A stretch of 64,000 nt of DNA, taken from positions 65,411 to 129,410 of the forward strand of contig JAGVWX010000019.1 in NCBI GenBank assembly GCA_018304105.1, in the 5' to 3' direction. Origin of the DNA: Candidatus Pacearchaeota archaeon. GTDB lineage: Archaea > Nanobdellota > Nanobdellia > Pacearchaeales > GW2011-AR1. The notes beneath the pieces are model-generated. The model was not told the origin of the DNA. It saw only the letters and a list, made by a program, of their open reading frames with translations, and made no database searches. Made by a program: the position numbers and the translations under genes. Below are positions 1 through 50,812 of this stretch, in pieces (the stretch's first letter is position 1; every line of letters starts with the position of its first letter).

Positions 1-730
1 TAAAAAGGACGAATCTGCCGTAATTGTTAGATGTCATGTGCTCAACGAAATCGAGAAGGCCGAACGCGCTTTTTTTGTTGTAGATATATTTTGGCTCGTA
101 TTTTTTTGTAAAGAGGTAAGCGGCGATTGCTCTGCCTAAGAAAGCTATTGCGAAGATTATGGTGAATCCTATGAAAATTTCACTGTTTTGGAAATGCTTT
201 AGGATGAACCCAGAGGTTAGAAGACTGATTAGGACGACTCCGGTTATTATTTCGTTTCTTCTTGAGAAGTATCTGCCGTTTTCTGAACTCAAAATGTCTT
301 TCATCCATGAGCTCCAGGCTGGGCTGCCGATTGCGCCGGCAAGAGCTATCAATGTGTAAATCGCTATTACTAAGAGAGAGGCATTTAGCGTGGTTAAAAT
401 GTTTGCAAAGTAGAGCCAGCCGACGAGGATAAGCGGGAGCCACATTAACGCTTGAAATATTGCGCTCATTATCATTATCTTCTTTCTAGAGACTTTTTTT
501 ATTAGGCTTAATGTGCCAAGTTGTGCAAAGTTGCCGAGAAGACTTGGAAGAGAAGTTAGGAGTGCAATTTGAGCGTTTGTTGCGCCGACAGCAAGAGCAT
601 ATGGTGTTATGTAACGGAAGCCAAAACCGTCCATCAAACTAGTGAACGAACCTTCCTTTACACTTATTTTTCTAGCTTGCTCTTTTTTTTGTTCTTCTGT
701 CAGAACTTCCGAAGCATCCCCTTTTTGCAT
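1..730 (-). CDS. MFS-type transporter, N-terminal 243 codons (gene continues past left edge)
   Basis: Not in ORF track (no stop in window). I checked all minus-frame triplets 2..730: open, ATG at 730. MQKGDASE...SFTSLMDGFGFRYITPYALAVGATNAQIALLTSLPSLLGNFAQL then repeated hydrophobic helices. Confidence 0.65.
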   Translation of the reverse strand, partial: MQKGDASEVLTEEQKKEQARKISVKEGSFTSLMDGFGFRYITPYALAVGATNAQIALLTSLPSLLGNFAQLGTLSLIKKVSRKKIMIMSAIFQALMWLPLILVGWLYFANILTTLNASLLVIAIYTLIALAGAIGSPAWSSWMKDILSSENGRYFSRRNEIITGVVLISLLTSGFILKHFQNSEIFIGFTIIFAIAFLGRAIAAYLFTKKYEPKYIYNKKSAFGLLDFVEHMTSNNYGRFVLF

Positions 731-1859: not shown

Positions 1860-2795
1860 CTAGTTTTGTCTTACTTTAATTAGATTTTCTTTTAATTGTT
1901 TTGAGATTTCTTTCCATGTTAAGAGGCCGTTTTTTGCCCCTGGAATTTGGATTACGGACTCTGCGTTGAGAGAGCCGAGCTTTATGGCTACTTCAGGGTT
2001 GTTTGTTTTGATTATGCCTGTTACAAAGGCAGATGCGAATGCGTCGCCTGCGCCTGTTCTTTCTGCAACTTTTATCTTTCTTGGCAATGAAGTTAGAATG
2101 CGGGAGCCATCTGAAACTTTGTTTCCTTCTCCGCCGTAAGTTATGCAGACAATTTTTGGGCCTAAAGAATGAAGCCCTTGGAATAAGTCGCCTTCAGGAA
2201 TTAAATCTTTGGCTTCGTCGTTGTTTAAGATTAAGACGTCAACATGGTCGAGAATTTTTTTTATGTAACCAACTCCTTTTTTTGTGAGGTAACTTGAAGG
2301 ATTGTAGATTTTGTTTTTTGAGGCGTAAAGTGCTAGGGCTTTTTGCGTGTCGAGAGAGGTATTGTCTGTTGCCGAGAAGTAGAACCATTTAGTTTTAAGT
2401 TTTTTTAGAGGAACGTCTGAAAGTGAAATGTTGTTTGATTTTTCTTTGTATGTTAGGACTGTTCTGTCGTGTTCTTTACTGTCTAAAATTACTGAGAAAT
2501 CTGTTAAGCCTTGTTCTTGTTTTCCTAAGAATGAGACTTTTTCTTTTTTTAATTCATTAAGGATGAGCTGGGAGTTTTCGTCCTTGCCGATTTTGATGAT
2601 TGTTCCTGTCTTGAGGCCGAGCTTTGAGAAAGAAACGGAAGTGTTTGTGCCTCCGCCGCCGGTTGAGAACTGGAGCTTGTTGATTGCGATTTTTTCGCCA
2701 ACATTATAACACATTTTCTTGTGAACTTCATGGACGTTTGTGTAGACGAATGCGTCAACGACTGCTCCACCGAATGTTATTATGTCGAACTTCAT
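1860..2795 (-). CDS. PfkB-family carbohydrate/nucleoside kinase
   Basis: N-terminal GGGGTNTSVSFSKLG and C-terminal TGAGDAFASAFVTG (PfkB signatures). Confidence 0.85.
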   Translation of the reverse strand: MKFDIITFGGAVVDAFVYTNVHEVHKKMCYNVGEKIAINKLQFSTGGGGTNTSVSFSKLGLKTGTIIKIGKDENSQLILNELKKEKVSFLGKQEQGLTDFSVILDSKEHDRTVLTYKEKSNNISLSDVPLKKLKTKWFYFSATDNTSLDTQKALALYASKNKIYNPSSYLTKKGVGYIKKILDHVDVLILNNDEAKDLIPEGDLFQGLHSLGPKIVCITYGGEGNKVSDGSRILTSLPRKIKVAERTGAGDAFASAFVTGIIKTNNPEVAIKLGSLNAESVIQIPGAKNGLLTWKEISKQLKENLIKVRQN

Positions 2796-2804
2796 ATTGT
2801 TCCC

Positions 2805-3179
2805 TCAAAATATTTGTTGTTTAATCTTGGCTTCATTGACCGCGACGTCTTCACCATAATAATTGAAGCCATTTCGGATGACTCTGTACTTGTCGAATTT
2901 CTCGGAGATTTCTTTTTCATTTAAAATTTCTTTTAAGAAACACGTTATGCATTCATGGTTGTAAATTTTGTATCCTTTTTTTATTGCGAGCGCTTCAAGA
3001 GCAATTCTTACAGAATCATAAAGAAGAGACACTTTAGAAGAAGCTGTATCTTCGTTAATGGCTAATTGTTGGTGAGAAATTAATTTTTTCTTACTTGAAA
3101 TAAGAAGAGATTCTATTTTCTCTTTTTTAGGAATTTTCTCCCTTATAAAACCTCTCTTTTTACATTCTTCCCAATTCAT
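2805..3179 (-). CDS. HEPN-domain protein (partner of upstream nucleotidyltransferase)
   Basis: 124 aa helical protein, 4-nt overlap with MNT gene at 3176-3179; C-terminal YRVIRNGFNYYG HEPN-like region. Confidence 0.6.
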   Translation of the reverse strand: MNWEECKKRGFIREKIPKKEKIESLLISSKKKLISHQQLAINEDTASSKVSLLYDSVRIALEALAIKKGYKIYNHECITCFLKEILNEKEISEKFDKYRVIRNGFNYYGEDVAVNEAKIKQQIF

Positions 3180-43716: not shown

Positions 43717-44001
43717 TTGAGTGGTGGAATGGTGTTGGAGTTTAATCCTAACGGCAGCATAAAAATGCCGCAAAGGGGTAGGAAGCTGGTGGTTTCTGAG
43801 AAGGTTGGGAAGAGCGAGGGAGTGGCTGTTGTTAGGGGCAGTAGTGAAGATGAAGTGCATCCCGTGATTGAGATTAAATGCCCGAAATGCAAAAATATGA
43901 AATCTTATTTCTGGACGATGCAAACTCGCGCGAGTGATGAATCAGAGACGAAATTTTACAAGTGCATCAAGTGCAAGCACACTTGGAGAGTTTATAGATA
44001 A
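43717..44001 (+). CDS. TFIIS-type C-terminal Zn-ribbon protein (TFS/RpoM-like paralog)
   Basis: CPKCKNMKSYFWTMQTRASDESETKFYKCIKCKHTWR; no N-terminal Cys ribbon. Confidence 0.75.
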   Translation: MSGGMVLEFNPNGSIKMPQRGRKLVVSEKVGKSEGVAVVRGSSEDEVHPVIEIKCPKCKNMKSYFWTMQTRASDESETKFYKCIKCKHTWRVYR

Positions 44002-44164
44002 TTTTTGGTAAGAAAGAAAAAATAAAAAATCAAATAATCTTATTTGTTTAGAACGAGCTAGTTGAAAGAAACCCTAAGTGGTTTTAACCCGAAGATTGAA
44101 TTTCAACAGCGACAAAAGCGAGTCCGTAATATTTTTCTTTTGAAATAAATAAGCCCACCGCATC

Positions 44165-44725
44165 CTCTGATGTAGTAGCTACTATTCGGTTCTAATTAAA
44201 TTTTACGGGAGGTGAAAATGGAAAAGGAACTGATAGTTAGCAGTGGTGCCGTCGGAGAAAGTAACTTTCACATTCAGCTGACACCAGCTTACCGAAGACC
44301 AATTTTTGAAAATGAGCAAACAGCTGAGTTGACGTTTGGTTACATTCTGGAAAAATTGTCTGAGCTAAAAGTTGTAATTGTCGCTTACAATTATGGGCCA
44401 GATCATTTGCATTTGTTTGTTGCAAATGTGAGATTTGTCAGCGAAGTAGAACTTGTCAGACAAATCAAAGGTTACAGCTCTTTCAAGATGCGAAGGCACT
44501 TTAGTTATCTTTTCGAAGATAAACTTTGGGGAGATAAGTTTTGGAGTGAGGGGCATTTCTATCGCAGCGTCGGTGCTGTGAACAAAGAGACGATGAAGCA
44601 CTACATCGAAGATTGTCAGGACAAGCATTGGGAAAAAATTGAAAGGCCAAAGTTTGTCGACTTATCTCAAAAGAGACTTGTTGATTTTTCGTCCTAAAAC
44701 GCTCGGGGCTTTAGCCCCGAGTAGT
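44165..44725 (+). mobile_element. IS200-like element or domesticated Y1 transposase locus (boundaries approximate)
   Basis: Perfect palindrome tagtagctacta (44173-44184) upstream and hairpin ctcggggc-ttta-gccccgag (44702-44721) downstream of tnpA. Confidence 0.55.
44212..44697 (+). CDS. tnpA: IS200/IS605-family Y1 (HUH) transposase TnpA
   Basis: DHLHLFV (HUH), IKGYSSFKMRRHF, FWSEGHFYRSVG...ETMKHYIE; probable ATG 44218 after RBS gggaggtg. Confidence 0.8.
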   Translation: MKMEKELIVSSGAVGESNFHIQLTPAYRRPIFENEQTAELTFGYILEKLSELKVVIVAYNYGPDHLHLFVANVRFVSEVELVRQIKGYSSFKMRRHFSYLFEDKLWGDKFWSEGHFYRSVGAVNKETMKHYIEDCQDKHWEKIERPKFVDLSQKRLVDFSS

Positions 44726-44968
44726 TTACACTTGTATGTTCATGGTCGTTTTGGTTTTAAATTGACTCCAAATAGAAATTATAATTATTTGGGTATTGAT
44801 GCTATGCTTGGAGTTCGTATGATGGATAATATTGACCCGGCCAAAGATAGTCGCTCTAGTTCTAGATATGGTGCATTTGTAAGTGAGCTCAATGCTGCTT
44901 TGAGTTAGTTATTATCTAAAAGTAGTTACATTCGTAAGGTTTAAAAATAGCTTCTAGTTTTCTTTTCT

Positions 44969-45517
44969 ATGATAAATTGGCACGAAATAGACAGAGAATT
45001 AATTGGAAGGGGCGTTGATGTTAATCGTATTGCTGATGCTTTAGGAAAACCTCTTGAACCAAGAATCAAACCTCTTGTTATGGCTTTGAATTATCGAGGT
45101 TATCATACTTGCGGGTCGTGTGAAGGCCATACTCTTGCCGAAAAAGAAAAAAGAATGGCTGACAAGGTTGCTTCTGGCGAGGCAAAACTTGTTTTTAGAG
45201 CGCCACGCGGTTTAACATACGAAAGGAAAACGCAAGGCGGAATAGTTTATCATGATACTTTTCATGAAAGCCCCTGGGCAGATTTTGATGTAATTAGCGA
45301 ATCGCAAGTAAGAAGATTTACAAGAGCATTGAATATACATAATGAAATTGATGAAGTCCAATGGAGTCATCATTTGTATAATCGTGGTAAAGAAATAAGT
45401 GCGAATCTCGTTAGCCCTGGTGAAGTGGTTCGCATGGAAACAGTCCCGAGATATTCTTTGTCAGTTATGCAAGCAAGTATCCCCCGATTTGCTGAGAATG
45501 TGATTAGGTTTGGTTAG
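44969..45517 (+). CDS. Hypothetical protein (orphan)
   Basis: 182 aa; CGSCEGH motif; converges on and overlaps the GGDEF gene by 4 nt. Confidence 0.45.
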   Translation: MINWHEIDRELIGRGVDVNRIADALGKPLEPRIKPLVMALNYRGYHTCGSCEGHTLAEKEKRMADKVASGEAKLVFRAPRGLTYERKTQGGIVYHDTFHESPWADFDVISESQVRRFTRALNIHNEIDEVQWSHHLYNRGKEISANLVSPGEVVRMETVPRYSLSVMQASIPRFAENVIRFG

Positions 45518-46059
45518 GTAATTTTCACGCAATTTCTTCCAGCCTTTTTTGCCTGATAAAGCGCGGCATCTGCACGCTTTGACATTCTTTCTAAATTGTC
45601 TTTTGGCTTGTATTCTGTGACGCCTAGCGAGATTGTAATCTTATATTTTTTGAGATAGCTTTCTGATAGGACAGATTTTCTCAGGCGCTCTGCGATGAGT
45701 CTTGCTCTTTGAGTTTTTGTGTTTGGAAGCATAATCAAGAATTCTTCGCCTCCAAATCTTGCGACTACGTCGTATTTTCTTACTTGGTGTTGGAGAAGCT
45801 GCGCGAGCTTGAGAAGTATTTTGTCGGCTTGCAAGTGACCGAAAGAGTCGTTTATTTTCTTGAAGAAGTCTATGTCAATAACAATAAGGGAGAGAGGTTT
45901 GCCTCTTCTGGCTTTGTCAAGTTCAAATGAGAAAACGTCTTTGAAGAATGAATGGTTGTATAAGCTGGTTTTCTCGTCGTGGGTTGCGATGTGATAGAGC
46001 TTGCTGACGTCTAAATTAATTTTGTCTAAAAGAGATTTTAAGGACGCTTCTTTTTTCAT
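45514..46059 (-). CDS. Stand-alone GGDEF-domain diguanylate cyclase
   Basis: TSLYNH.F, IDIDFFKKINDSFGH, RKYD (RxxD I-site) five residues before RFGGEEF, ADAALYQAKKAGRN. Confidence 0.85.
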   Translation of the reverse strand: MKKEASLKSLLDKINLDVSKLYHIATHDEKTSLYNHSFFKDVFSFELDKARRGKPLSLIVIDIDFFKKINDSFGHLQADKILLKLAQLLQHQVRKYDVVARFGGEEFLIMLPNTKTQRARLIAERLRKSVLSESYLKKYKITISLGVTEYKPKDNLERMSKRADAALYQAKKAGRNCVKIT

Positions 46060-46103
46060 GGTTTTAATTAGGTAACTTGGTTAATAAGTTTTTGGTAGGT
46101 AAT

Positions 46104-46212: not shown

Positions 46213-46287
46213 GGCCCCGTAGCTCAGCCTGGTTAGAGCACTGGACTCTTAATCCAGGTGTCGCGGGTTCAATTCCCGTCGGGGCCG
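46213..46287 (+). tRNA. tRNA-Lys (anticodon CTT)
   Basis: GGCCCCG TA GCTC AGCCTGGTTA GAGC A CTGGA CTCTTAA TCCAG GTGTC GCGGG TTCAATT CCCGT CGGGGCC G. Confidence 0.95.
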
Positions 46288-46342: not shown

Positions 46343-46726
46343 ATGAAATCAAATCCTAATTTGAGAAAAGAAATAGAAAAGTTCAAAGAATGCGTGATTT
46401 TGGTTGAAGGAAAGAATGACATTAAATCTTTGAAGAGTGCTGGTTTTGAAAAGGTTTATGCGATTCATGTTCCTGGAGTTGGGCTGAGAGAAAGAATTGA
46501 GCAGATTGTTTCGGAAGTTGGAACGAAAGAAACATTTTGTGTTTTGATGGACTTGGACAAATCTGGAAAGAAATTTTATACTTTGATTAAGCCGATTTTG
46601 CAGGAGCTTGGAGTTAGAGTTGATACTAAATTCAGGGGGCTTTTGAGCAGAGAAAATGTGTCGCATCTTGAGGGATTTGGGAAGGTTGTTGAAAGTTTAG
46701 ACAGCAACCTGACCGCTTCTTTGTAA
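46343..46726 (+). CDS. Small Toprim-domain protein
   Basis: VILVEGKNDIKSL (Glu) and LMDLDKSGKKF (DxD). Confidence 0.65.
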   Translation: MKSNPNLRKEIEKFKECVILVEGKNDIKSLKSAGFEKVYAIHVPGVGLRERIEQIVSEVGTKETFCVLMDLDKSGKKFYTLIKPILQELGVRVDTKFRGLLSRENVSHLEGFGKVVESLDSNLTASL

Positions 46727-47023
46727 TTCTTCTATGGGCTGAAGTCTGCGATTTCCGGAGAGAAATAGTGTGTCTGTGGTATAAAATCTAGGATTTGTTG
46801 TTTGTCTTATTTCTGCTAGTAAATTTGGGTTAATGCCTTGTAGTTGTATGGCGTCTGCTTTTGGTCTAACGCCGACGTATTCACCGCCAGGCCCTCGATA
46901 GTCACCGTTACAAACTTGTCTGAAATCTCTTTTTAGCATTAATGCTCTCAACGATTCAGTTTCTTCATCCGAAAACCTTGTCCAACTTCCGTTCTTTGTT
47001 CCTTTAACTAAATAAATAGCCAT
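46697..47023 (-). CDS. Hypothetical protein (orphan)
   Basis: 108 aa R/G-rich. Confidence 0.4.
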   Translation of the reverse strand: MAIYLVKGTKNGSWTRFSDEETESLRALMLKRDFRQVCNGDYRGPGGEYVGVRPKADAIQLQGINPNLLAEIRQTTNPRFYTTDTLFLSGNRRLQPIEELQRSGQVAV

Positions 47024-47101: not shown

Positions 47102-47368
47102 TTAACCGATTAGTCTTTTGATGTTTTCGATGTTTTCTGCGACTTCAGCGCCTTTTTTTGTAAGCTTTATCAGCTTTATTCTGCCTTTTTTCTCGAAAAC
47201 AACGAGGCCTAATCTTTCTAAGCCTTGCAAGATTTTGACGGCGTGGCTATATGTGCAATCTACCTCTTTTGCAAGAATGCTGCCATACCTGACTCTTGCA
47301 ACTCTCTTTAAGGCGACCAGCATCAAAGCCGGTTTCCTTCGGAAAAAGATATCAAAGTTGTCTTTCAT
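47102..47368 (-). CDS. Small winged-helix transcription regulator
   Basis: 88 aa; SILAKEVDCTYSHAVKILQGLERLGLVVFEKKGRIKLIKLTKKG. Confidence 0.6.
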   Translation of the reverse strand: MKDNFDIFFRRKPALMLVALKRVARVRYGSILAKEVDCTYSHAVKILQGLERLGLVVFEKKGRIKLIKLTKKGAEVAENIENIKRLIG

Positions 47369-49362: not shown

Positions 49363-49962
49363 ATGAGAATACTTGCGGCAAGCGACATTCATGGAGACTC
49401 GAGGAAGTTCAAGAAATTAGCTGAGCAAGCTGAACGGGAGAACGTTGACCTCGTGATTTTGTGCGGGGATAATCTTGGGTGGTTTGAGACGAAGGATGTT
49501 ATTAAGCCGTTTAAGGACAAGAATAAAAGGGTTTTGCTTGTGCCCGGGAATTGGGATTCTTTTGCGGCTATGGATTTTGTGGCACAGGTTTATGGAGTTA
49601 GAAATATTCATGGATACAGCGTAAAGTACGATGGAGTTGGGTTTTTTGGGGCGGGCGGAGCGCCAGGCTCTCCAGGAGAAGGAAAGATAACGGAAACTGA
49701 ATTGATGGATGCATTGGAGAGAGCGCATAAAGGATTGAATGGAATTGAAAAGAAAGTTATGATAACTCACATGCATCCGAAGGGAAGCAAGTCGGAATTT
49801 TCGGGATGGGACGGAAGCGAAGCAGTGAGAAAAGCGATTGAAAAATTCAAGCCGGATGTTTTGCTTCATGGGCATATTCATGAAGCTAGCGGGATGGAAG
49901 AAAGGATTGGAAAGACCAAGGTTATTAATGTTGCCCGTGCGGGGAAAGTGATTGAGATTTAG
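49363..49962 (+). CDS. Calcineurin-like metallophosphoesterase (MJ0936/YfcE type)
   Basis: SDIHGD, CGDN, GNWD, THMHP, GHIHE motifs. Confidence 0.85.
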   Translation: MRILAASDIHGDSRKFKKLAEQAERENVDLVILCGDNLGWFETKDVIKPFKDKNKRVLLVPGNWDSFAAMDFVAQVYGVRNIHGYSVKYDGVGFFGAGGAPGSPGEGKITETELMDALERAHKGLNGIEKKVMITHMHPKGSKSEFSGWDGSEAVRKAIEKFKPDVLLHGHIHEASGMEERIGKTKVINVARAGKVIEI

Positions 49963-50812
49963 CTGCGAGCCACTCCTGGTAACGAATATTCGGTTGATAA
50001 ATTACTTGTGCGGAATTGCTTGGCGGTTGATAATTAACTGAAGGTGTAATCTGTGAAATTTTATGGGCTAAATGAATTGCTGTCGGGTCTTCAACAATTT
50101 CTCTTAATTGCTGTTGCTTGCCATTGAGTTGAAAACTATCTTTAATTTCTCCTGAATCGAGATGTCTTAATAAATCAAAGGCTACGCCGTGGCCGAATCG
50201 CATAATTGCTGCATATTGCTGTGCTGAAGGCATGGCCATAAAGCCAGGGTTTAAAATAGAACATTCTCTTGGCAGTTCTTCAAGAAATAGGTTTCCGAAA
50301 TGCCAATCTGGTGAATCTGTTTTTGGAAATGCTTCTACGACTTTTACTTTTTCTCTGTTATCAAATGGTTTGGCATGAACTGTAGTTATTCTTCCAGCTT
50401 CATCGAAATCCCACCAGAGAATTATTTGCCTGCTGTACATTCTTGAGATTATTAGAGAATCTTTTTCCAAAACGAAATGAACCTTTGTGTTGCCGGACAT
50501 ACCGACATAATCTCTTCTTGGAAGAGTGAAATCCGGAGCGGGGAGTTCTATCTGTGGGGCTCTTGGAAGCTCTACGGCCGATTCTTGTTGTGGTGTCAGC
50601 GATCTTTCTGAAATGTATCCATTTACTGCTCGCTGTAATGCTAGGAAATCTAAAAATAAATTTCCGGCCAGATTAGCGCCTGCAACCTGAAGCTTTCCTT
50701 CGATAATAGATAATCTTGTTCTGAGGGTTTCTGAAGTTTCATGAGCTAGGTCGAGACTTTCTATTTGAGCCATGGCATCTCTTATATCATGCCTTTGTTG
50801 TCTGGTTGGCAT
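49925..50812 (-). CDS. Hypothetical protein (orphan, Q/R-rich)
   Basis: 295 aa; 3' end overlaps the phosphoesterase gene by 38 nt. Confidence 0.45.
   Translation of the reverse strand: MPTRQQRHDIRDAMAQIESLDLAHETSETLRTRLSIIEGKLQVAGANLAGNLFLDFLALQRAVNGYISERSLTPQQESAVELPRAPQIELPAPDFTLPRRDYVGMSGNTKVHFVLEKDSLIISRMYSRQIILWWDFDEAGRITTVHAKPFDNREKVKVVEAFPKTDSPDWHFGNLFLEELPRECSILNPGFMAMPSAQQYAAIMRFGHGVAFDLLRHLDSGEIKDSFQLNGKQQQLREIVEDPTAIHLAHKISQITPSVNYQPPSNSAQVIYQPNIRYQEWLAAKSQSLSPHGQH

Follow-up and report, generated by a model that had tools for sequence, protein, structure and literature searches.

A short GGDEF protein from a Pacearchaeota genome: a probable diguanylate cyclase native to DPANN archaea

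A stretch of 64,000 nucleotides from contig JAGVWX010000019.1 of a Candidatus Pacearchaeota archaeon (GenBank assembly GCA_018304105.1, positions 65,411 to 129,410), referred to here as the window, was analysed for a gene on its reverse strand that encodes a GGDEF protein of 181 amino acids (aa). The product of this gene is probably a diguanylate cyclase that is competent in catalysis and native to a member of the Pacearchaeota (DPANN archaea), a reading to which a probability of about 0.75 was given; the residues are present in the sequence, and the activity would follow from them. The protein is a further case of the short archaeal GGDEF-only proteins that have already been published (Sidorov, Li, ... 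Romling, Mol Microbiol, September 2026; PMC13725321), a class that recurs widely. The gene, the segments of its product and the element ahead of it are located as follows.

45514..46059 (-): putative diguanylate cyclase gene (stalk plus GGDEF domain), an open reading frame (ORF) of 181 aa, assigned from PF00990, TIGR00254, an AlphaFold2 (AF2) model and Foldseek
45982..46053 (-), aa 3-26: N-terminal amphipathic helix, putative coiled-coil dimerisation stalk, from the AF2 model and the heptad pattern
45823..45876 (-), aa 62-79: substrate- and metal-binding segment DIDFFKKINDSFGHLQAD, with D62, K67, N70 and D79 corresponding to PleD D327, K332, N335 and D344
45769-45780 (-), aa 94-97: primary inhibitory site (I-site) RKYD, corresponding to PleD R359-D362
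45739-45753 (-), aa 103-107: active-site hairpin GGEEF, corresponding to PleD 368-372 (reverse complement GGA GGC GAA GAA TTC)
46081..46087 (-): TATA-like box TTATTAA, 22-28 nt ahead of the ATG

Catalytic residues, structure and predicted product

The 181-aa protein was matched by the Pfam GGDEF family PF00990 with 152.4 bits (E 1.2e-44; cutoff 23.8) and by TIGR00254 with 163.3 bits (cutoff 37.4), and the intact GGDEF cyclase described in a first-pass annotation of the window was thereby recovered, with all of its listed motifs at the spacing given there. By direct reading of the sequence, DIDFFKKIND occupies residues 62-71 and YQAKKAGRN residues 168-176, and RKYD is separated from GGEEF by the five residues VVARF. 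The lack of a sensor domain, also claimed at that stage, was borne out, as just residues 1-26, a single helix in the model, stand ahead of the GGDEF domain. A phmmer alignment with PleD of Caulobacter (structures 1w25, 2v0n and 2wb4) was ungapped over residues 62-125 at an offset of 265, with G103-F107 aligned to PleD 368-372 and K171 and R175 to K442 and R446, so that the active-site, guanine, phosphate and both I-site residue sets of the two proteins align at a domain identity of 36-39%. On this basis we take D62 to be a metal-binding residue, K67 an active-site residue, N70 and D79 guanine-binding residues, R94 and D97 the primary I-site, R125 (PleD R390) the secondary I-site, and K171 and R175 phosphate-binding residues. 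Unlike PleD, in which two receiver domains control dimerisation by phosphorylation, the present cyclase has no receiver domain.

Residue conservation was counted over 117 relatives of the cyclase family, down to about 50% identity. D62, D64, N70, G74, H75, D79 and GGEEF were found to be invariant in 117/117 sequences, as were R94 and D97 of the I-site; K171 was likewise invariant, K67 was lysine in 116/117, R175 was arginine in 116/117 and the secondary I-site residue R125 was arginine in 113/117. The retention of every catalytic residue over this range speaks against the proposal that the protein is mainly a scaffold or receptor that binds c-di-GMP (cyclic di-GMP) or another nucleotide and is not an enzyme, given that GGDEF domains of the receptor type have as a rule lost both the GGDEF motif and their metal ligands. 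The region also shows no evident alternative source of c-di-GMP. A receptor would also be compatible with the perfectly conserved I-site, and several archaeal GGDEF proteins expressed in Salmonella gave phenotypes that were independent of the catalytic motif (PMC13725321), but for the protein studied here such a role is judged very unlikely. That the I-site is perfectly conserved is an argument for the accumulation of c-di-GMP in these cells to levels that matter.

The predicted product is argued to be c-di-GMP and not cyclic GMP-AMP (cGAMP), because N70 and D79, the residues that would specify guanine, are invariant and because the serine that marks the Hypr enzymes is absent. The Hypr GGDEF cGAMP synthases GacA/GSU1658 and MXAN_2643 (Hallberg et al. 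2019, as cited in PMC13725321) share the fold and the GGDEF motif with the present cyclase, but differ from it by a serine at the base-binding Asp, which here is D79 in 117/117. The same Asp-to-Ser mark is missing from all 20 archaeal proteins of PMC13725321, in which related DPANN proteins switched the c-di-GMP-specific Vc2 riboswitch, and the I-site, itself c-di-GMP-binding, is invariant. A different product, whether 3'3'-cGAMP formed in a Hypr-like manner, c-di-AMP or linear pppGpG, might be proposed from the invariant lysine in the DxLT turn, from the alanine that replaces glycine before the base-binding Asp in 70/117 family members, and from the lack of canonical c-di-GMP partners nearby; set against the residues above, it is regarded as unlikely, as is the different cyclic dinucleotide suggested in the first-pass annotation.

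The AF2 monomer model of the cyclase, with a predicted local distance difference test (pLDDT) value of 92.7, presented residues 3-26 as a single helix. The top 50 Foldseek matches of this model in the PDB were all GGDEF-domain structures, nearly all of them diguanylate cyclases, with a probability of 1.00 and TMq values of 0.76-0.94 against cyclase structures; the model thus has the palm-type GGDEF fold. The best full-length match was to the stalk and GGDEF domain of IsPadC (5llx), with a TMq of 0.94 and a root-mean-square deviation of 1.4 over 178 columns. Full-length superposition was also obtained on the bacterial stalk cyclases DgcB (6ttr, Caulobacter), SiaD (7e6g, Pseudomonas aeruginosa) and WspR (3bre; GCN4 fusion 3i5c), with TMq values of 0.89 on 6ttr, 0.88 on 7e6g and 0.80 on 3i5c. 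Like these enzymes, the archaeal protein has an N-terminal helix that is continuous with the GGDEF domain and an I-site of the RxxD type. In contrast to them, it has a much shorter stalk of about three heptads, lacks REC and any other input domain, is not accompanied by a nearby gene for a SiaC-like partner and carries lysine in place of leucine in the DxLT turn; its identity to them is only 29-34%. SiaD (NF038266) was the second-best NCBIfam model, and an assignment to it was rejected, as the match covers model positions 88-252 only and its 163 bits fall well short of the cutoff of 290.

GGDEF cyclases have to dimerise to join two GTP molecules. In the 117 relatives, the hydrophobic residues 7, 11, 14, 18, 21 and 25 of the stalk are conserved at 3-4 heptad spacing, and the DxLT turn that joins the stalk to the domain carries lysine (K30) in 45/45 family members versus leucine in 82/84 bacterial sequences. 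From the helix at residues 3-26, the conserved heptads and the superposition of a monomer model on structures that combine a coiled coil with a GGDEF domain, we infer that the short N-terminal stalk would make a parallel dimer, either constitutive or modulated by a partner.

A mechanism may be proposed on these grounds. The 24-residue amphipathic N-terminal helices would pair two chains as a parallel coiled-coil stalk, and the two GGDEF domains, each loaded with one GTP-Mg, would be brought face to face and condense 2 GTP to c-di-GMP. As a sensor domain is lacking, the level of output would depend on how strongly the gene is transcribed from its own promoter of the TATA type, and the product itself would presumably cap it through non-competitive feedback at the fully conserved RxxD I-site.

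A weak likeness to the Cas10 palm was also detected, with 28.4 bits for PF22335 (cutoff 27) and a PADLOC Cas10 match of E 2e-5 over about 75 residues. Membership in a type III CRISPR or other defence system was rejected, as the palm match is marginal, no cas genes occur in the window and no defence system was found by PADLOC. An antisense ORF inside the cyclase gene, at 45709-45930 (+), recurs as a 'family' in nine loci; it reflects the conservation of the sense strand and is no gene.

Archaeal context, family and inheritance of the gene

The neighbouring features on which the comparison of loci depends are given below; locus names of the form L006 denote the compared contigs.

43717..44001 (+): transcription factor S (TFS), syntenic anchor (Zn_ribbon_TFIIS, E 2e-18), adjoining the cyclase in L005, L006, L013 and L173
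44212..44697 (+): IS200-type tnpA, species-specific insertion (Y1_Tnp, E 1.4e-22; phrog_2577 transposase)
44969..45517 (+): 182-aa ORFan, species-specific, convergent with the cyclase gene with a 4-nt overlap
46213..46287 (+): tRNA-Lys(CTT), adjoining the cyclase gene (ARAGORN, Rfam)
47102..47368 (-): 88-aa winged-helix protein, the other syntenic anchor (HTH_27), equivalently placed in L006 and L013
49363..49962 (+): YfcE/MJ0936-type metallophosphoesterase (Metallophos, E 1.2e-18), syntenic only in the near subclade

Archaeal genes were identified within 2 kb on both sides of the cyclase gene, TFS and an archaeal-type signal peptidase being among the genes within that distance, and the archaeal context that had been claimed was further substantiated by the markers TFS, CDC48/VAT, RtcB, archease, Rpb7, Spt4, S24e and eIF2-gamma on the window and its extensions. 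The closest named relatives of the cyclase fit the Pacearchaeota assignment. The gene was read with the same neighbours on 24 contigs from separately assembled samples, four compared loci from four such samples showed zero nucleotide differences in the cyclase gene, and the locus is present in 18 or more DNA runs, drawn from several studies of groundwater and soil. Because these independent assemblies agree, an assembly chimera, or a bacterial contaminant in an archaeal bin, is excluded for the cyclase contig. The public labels of two family members, a Bacillota metagenome-assembled genome (MAG) and a 'Pacebacteria' MAG, would have pointed towards contamination, but both records sit in archaeal gene context. 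In the former, L018 (DATKUW010000087.1, 'Bacillota bacterium SMAG_U14117'), DTD2, cyclase, RNase HII and SMC follow one another in the order found in L008, which is archaeal by its other genes (among them isoleucyl-tRNA synthetase, IleRS, and a diphthine-synthase-type methylase); in the latter, L173 (JAQTRG010000035.1, 'Candidatus Pacebacteria'), the cyclase adjoins TFS. By their gene context, the two records seem to be archaeal DNA of DPANN type that was given a bacterial label or bin. L173 additionally carries, at 2210-2845 (-) and about 1.1 kb from its GGDEF-TFS pair, a 211-aa class III nucleotidyl cyclase (PF00211), possibly a second nucleotide-messenger enzyme in a DPANN genome.

A total of 1871 relatives of a length similar to that of the cyclase were retrieved, and the top 120 are described here. 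These were 51-100% identical to the cyclase and 106-215 aa long, all but four of them 174-215 aa, with GGDEF as the only substantive domain match; the named ones were Nanoarchaeota, Pacearchaeota or 'archaeon', with 'Pacebacteria' as the single exception. Among the GTDB species genomes, all matches of at least 49% identity belonged to Pacearchaeota, Woesearchaeota or Nanoarchaeota, apart from one 'Bacillota' MAG contig; one more Woesearchaeota match was found at 45%, and the bacterial matches did not exceed 47%. A maximum-likelihood tree calculated from 129 sequences united the short proteins (about 180-200 aa) in one clade of 45 rows (SH-aLRT 99, stem 0.57), which takes in every labelled archaeon, is archaeal wherever label or gene context was checked, and has a sister group without resolution. 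A scan of metagenome contigs with the family patterns [AS]RFGGEEF and FK[KR]xND..GH, intended for neighbourhood statistics, was discarded, as the patterns are common to bacterial cyclases; 79/80 of the loci it returned were 36-46% identical to the cyclase and one was 51% identical. The first-pass annotation had raised the case of closest homologs that are common in this archaeal clade and have a known function there; they were indeed found to be common in the clade, and an archaeal function is not established.

Two gene orders were recognised around the cyclase. In the near subclade, with cyclases of 83, 77 and 70% identity, the order is metallophosphoesterase, 88-aa helix-turn-helix (HTH) protein, tRNA-Lys, cyclase, TFS and signal peptidase; in the distant subclade it is IleRS, diphthine-synthase-type methylase, 80-aa protein, DTD2, cyclase, RNase HII and SMC. 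The two neighbourhoods are both of the housekeeping kind, and they have no neighbour in common besides the cyclase itself. The gene has a GC content of 0.396 and a GC content at third codon positions (GC3) of 0.44, to be compared with a GC3 of 0.38-0.45 for core genes and 0.27 for the 182-aa ORFan. A comparison with the L013 ortholog (77% identical) gave a dN of 0.14 and a dS of about 1.8, near saturation, with a ratio of about 0.08 or lower, which indicates that the coding sequence is under strong purifying selection. Upstream, an alignment of four orthologs with proteins of 70-83% identity showed no change in TTATTAA, and the flanking bases vary; the distance of 22-28 nt to the ATG would suit the archaeal TATA box of a leaderless mRNA, and the box is taken to be a putative promoter.

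Because its position is kept, its composition is host-like, it is under purifying selection and it falls in a single clade, the cyclase is regarded as an old, inherited resident gene, and the IS200 element and the 182-aa ORFan as later insertions. The first-pass annotation had read the same surroundings as consistent with horizontal acquisition; on such a reading, the cyclase would be bacterial cargo carried together with IS200 and orphan genes. The IS200-type tnpA and the convergent 182-aa gene with its 4-nt overlap were both seen as it had described them, the former 0.8 kb away and the latter abutting the cyclase gene, and GGDEF domains are overwhelmingly bacterial. However, the cyclase stays between tRNA-Lys and the 88-aa HTH gene on one side and TFS and signal peptidase on the other in relatives that lack both IS200 and the ORFan, at 83, 77 and 70% identity; its composition is that of the host and the low GC3 belongs to the ORFan; the best bacterial match reaches at most 47% identity, versus 49-83% for dozens of DPANN homologs; and the short proteins group in one supported clade, marked by a K30 signature that is private to it. 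A recent acquisition is accordingly extremely improbable. Since the sister group of the clade is without resolution, there may have been a single ancient transfer at its base. The inheritance favoured here would mean that the ancestor shared by a large DPANN group already had the cyclase, with vertical descent from there and with IS200 and the ORFan inserted later.

Several observations on the neighbourhood may be added. None of the syntenic loci L005, L006 and L013 contains the IS200 tnpA. The slot between TFS and the cyclase gene (44002-45513) is hypervariable, being occupied by IS200 tnpA and the 182-aa ORFan in the window, by 119-aa and 237-aa genes in L005, by a 107-aa EamA-like gene in L006, and in L013 by about 530 nt with no ORF of at least 60 aa common to other loci. 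The 182-aa ORFan retrieved only itself among 5.8 billion protein clusters, had no Pfam, NCBIfam, PHROG or PADLOC match and was absent from all related loci; a role as partner of the cyclase was rejected on these three counts. Together with two other orphan ORFs that also have no family, it has a GC3 of 0.27-0.29, versus 0.38-0.45 in core genes, and the three (44969-45517 (+), 46697-47023 (-) and 49925-50812 (-), of 182, 108 and 295 aa) may have arisen recently or be of foreign origin. No gene of the neighbourhood is more conserved than that of the 88-aa winged-helix protein, which is 89-92% identical in L006 and L013, where the cyclase is just 70-77% identical. A tRNA-like sequence lies just upstream of the cyclase in L013 and L006 as well, according to an alignment read by eye. 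In the window, the segment 46137-46212 (+), directly ahead of the tRNA, contains a copy of the first ~23 bases of tRNA-Lys(CTT) followed by a hairpin-like spacer; in L013 the tRNA adjoins the cyclase gene with no such repeated-tRNA leader. In the Woesearchaeota-like loci L008, L014-L018, L020 and L093, DTD2 (PF04414) lies upstream of the cyclase on the same strand (in L019 it is about 3.5 kb away), with gaps as small as 27-45 nt (L015, L014), which suggests possible co-transcription of the cyclase with this housekeeping gene in that subclade. The ORFs of 210-215 aa that lie upstream in L006 and L008 were found not to be homologous.

Signalling partners and comparison with published archaeal GGDEF proteins

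Partners of the cyclase were sought among the Pfam matches on record for the 64-kb window and about 10 kb beyond each end (about 84 kb). The metallophosphoesterase lies about 1.5-5 kb from the cyclase in the window, in L006, in L013 and on the P0015 contig, and its YfcE subfamily score was 51.4 bits, under the cutoff of 56.25. It was rejected as a dedicated phosphodiesterase, since none of the more distant relatives has it near the cyclase and its proximity amounts to ordinary synteny. An HD protein and a DHH/DHHA1 gene were each seen once near distant relatives. The former, near the cyclase of L009, was set aside as a phosphodiesterase, having a plain HD domain with no match to the HD-GYP model, and so was the latter, 5.5 kb away in L007.

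Knowledge of archaeal GGDEF proteins has changed within a few years. A single archaeal GGDEF protein was known to Galperin et al. (2018; PMC5847659), who doubted others, and Romling (2022; PMC10086821) called for confirmation on archaeal contigs. Sidorov and co-workers then described GGDEF proteins in archaeal isolates together with 20 MAG proteins, mainly from DPANN archaea, including GGDEF-only proteins with very short extensions, which are rare in Bacteria (PMC13725321). Some of the short DPANN GGDEF-only proteins gave catalysis-dependent signals in a Vc2 riboswitch reporter, and the origin of the genes, the phosphodiesterases and the receptors were left open in that study. The view of the first-pass annotation that c-di-GMP signalling is not an archaeal system has thus been overtaken by the archaeal GGDEF proteins reported there and the partial in vivo evidence for their cyclase activity. 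The cyclase of the window resembles the published proteins (e.g., KHO53289.1 and KHO53915.1) in its GGDEF domain with a short N-terminal extension, its GGEEF motif and signature residues, and in the archaeal (DPANN) genes that flank it, and the structures named as closest in that paper, 3IGN and PleD 2WB4, are also among the top matches of this cyclase. A cluster look-up for the window cyclase returned other accessions and no KHO accession. Synteny, clade structure, the K30 signature and the stalk heptads were not analysed in PMC13725321 and are added here.

Several points weigh against a working archaeal cyclase as proposed here. No EAL, HD-GYP, PilZ, MshEN or DHH domain was found in the ~84 kb around the gene, which extends the absence of EAL, HD-GYP and PilZ noted earlier for the window, and no c-di-GMP riboswitch was detected in the 64-kb window with Rfam, even at E <= 1. 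The RNA runs of the same studies, which are tiny, contained no sequence words of the cyclase gene. The parallel dimer was deduced from a monomer model, and the invariant replacement of leucine by lysine at K30 has no established effect. Among the published proteins, no MAG protein was consistent across all three in vivo assays, and c-di-GMP is reported not to have been found in any archaeal cell so far (PMC13725321).

The missing partners could also be explained if an active enzyme made c-di-GMP that is aimed at the host cell of a presumed episymbiont, where it would act on biofilm formation or motility; this explanation, which takes up the host interaction suggested in the first-pass annotation, is pure inference. 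DPANN archaea have reduced genomes and many are attached to hosts, and the absence of a receptor or phosphodiesterase in the ~84 kb and of a riboswitch in the 64-kb window would fit such a role. On the other hand, no export or transfer machinery is linked to the cyclase gene, the gene stands among housekeeping genes in both synteny types, and the I-site implies that the intracellular level of the product matters. A host-directed signal is therefore considered quite unlikely.

Significance for DPANN archaea

Taken by itself, the cyclase locus leaves current knowledge unchanged. For short DPANN cyclases as a group, it is new that vertical inheritance is supported by evidence, that two housekeeping neighbourhoods are conserved around the gene and that the family has a heptad stalk and a K30 signature; in addition, two mislabelled contigs are corrected. 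The use of c-di-GMP by archaea is only now opening up, and to this the locus adds evidence on the origin of one family, which is not mobile-element cargo. The cyclase is, moreover, a clean, small (181 aa) and monocistronic test protein, and its source organism is abundant in well-sampled groundwater.

A wider reading may be put forward tentatively, at somewhat below even odds. A large DPANN branch, comprising Nanoarchaeota of the Pacearchaeota and Woesearchaeota types, may run an ancestral c-di-GMP system in which one minimal, sensor-less and feedback-limited cyclase is kept in sub-megabase genomes and in which proteins with no relationship to PilZ, EAL and HD-GYP would sense the messenger and break it down. 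If true, these archaea would possess a new set of effectors and turnover enzymes, and the finding would be relevant to the question of whether c-di-GMP is older than the divergence of Bacteria and Archaea.

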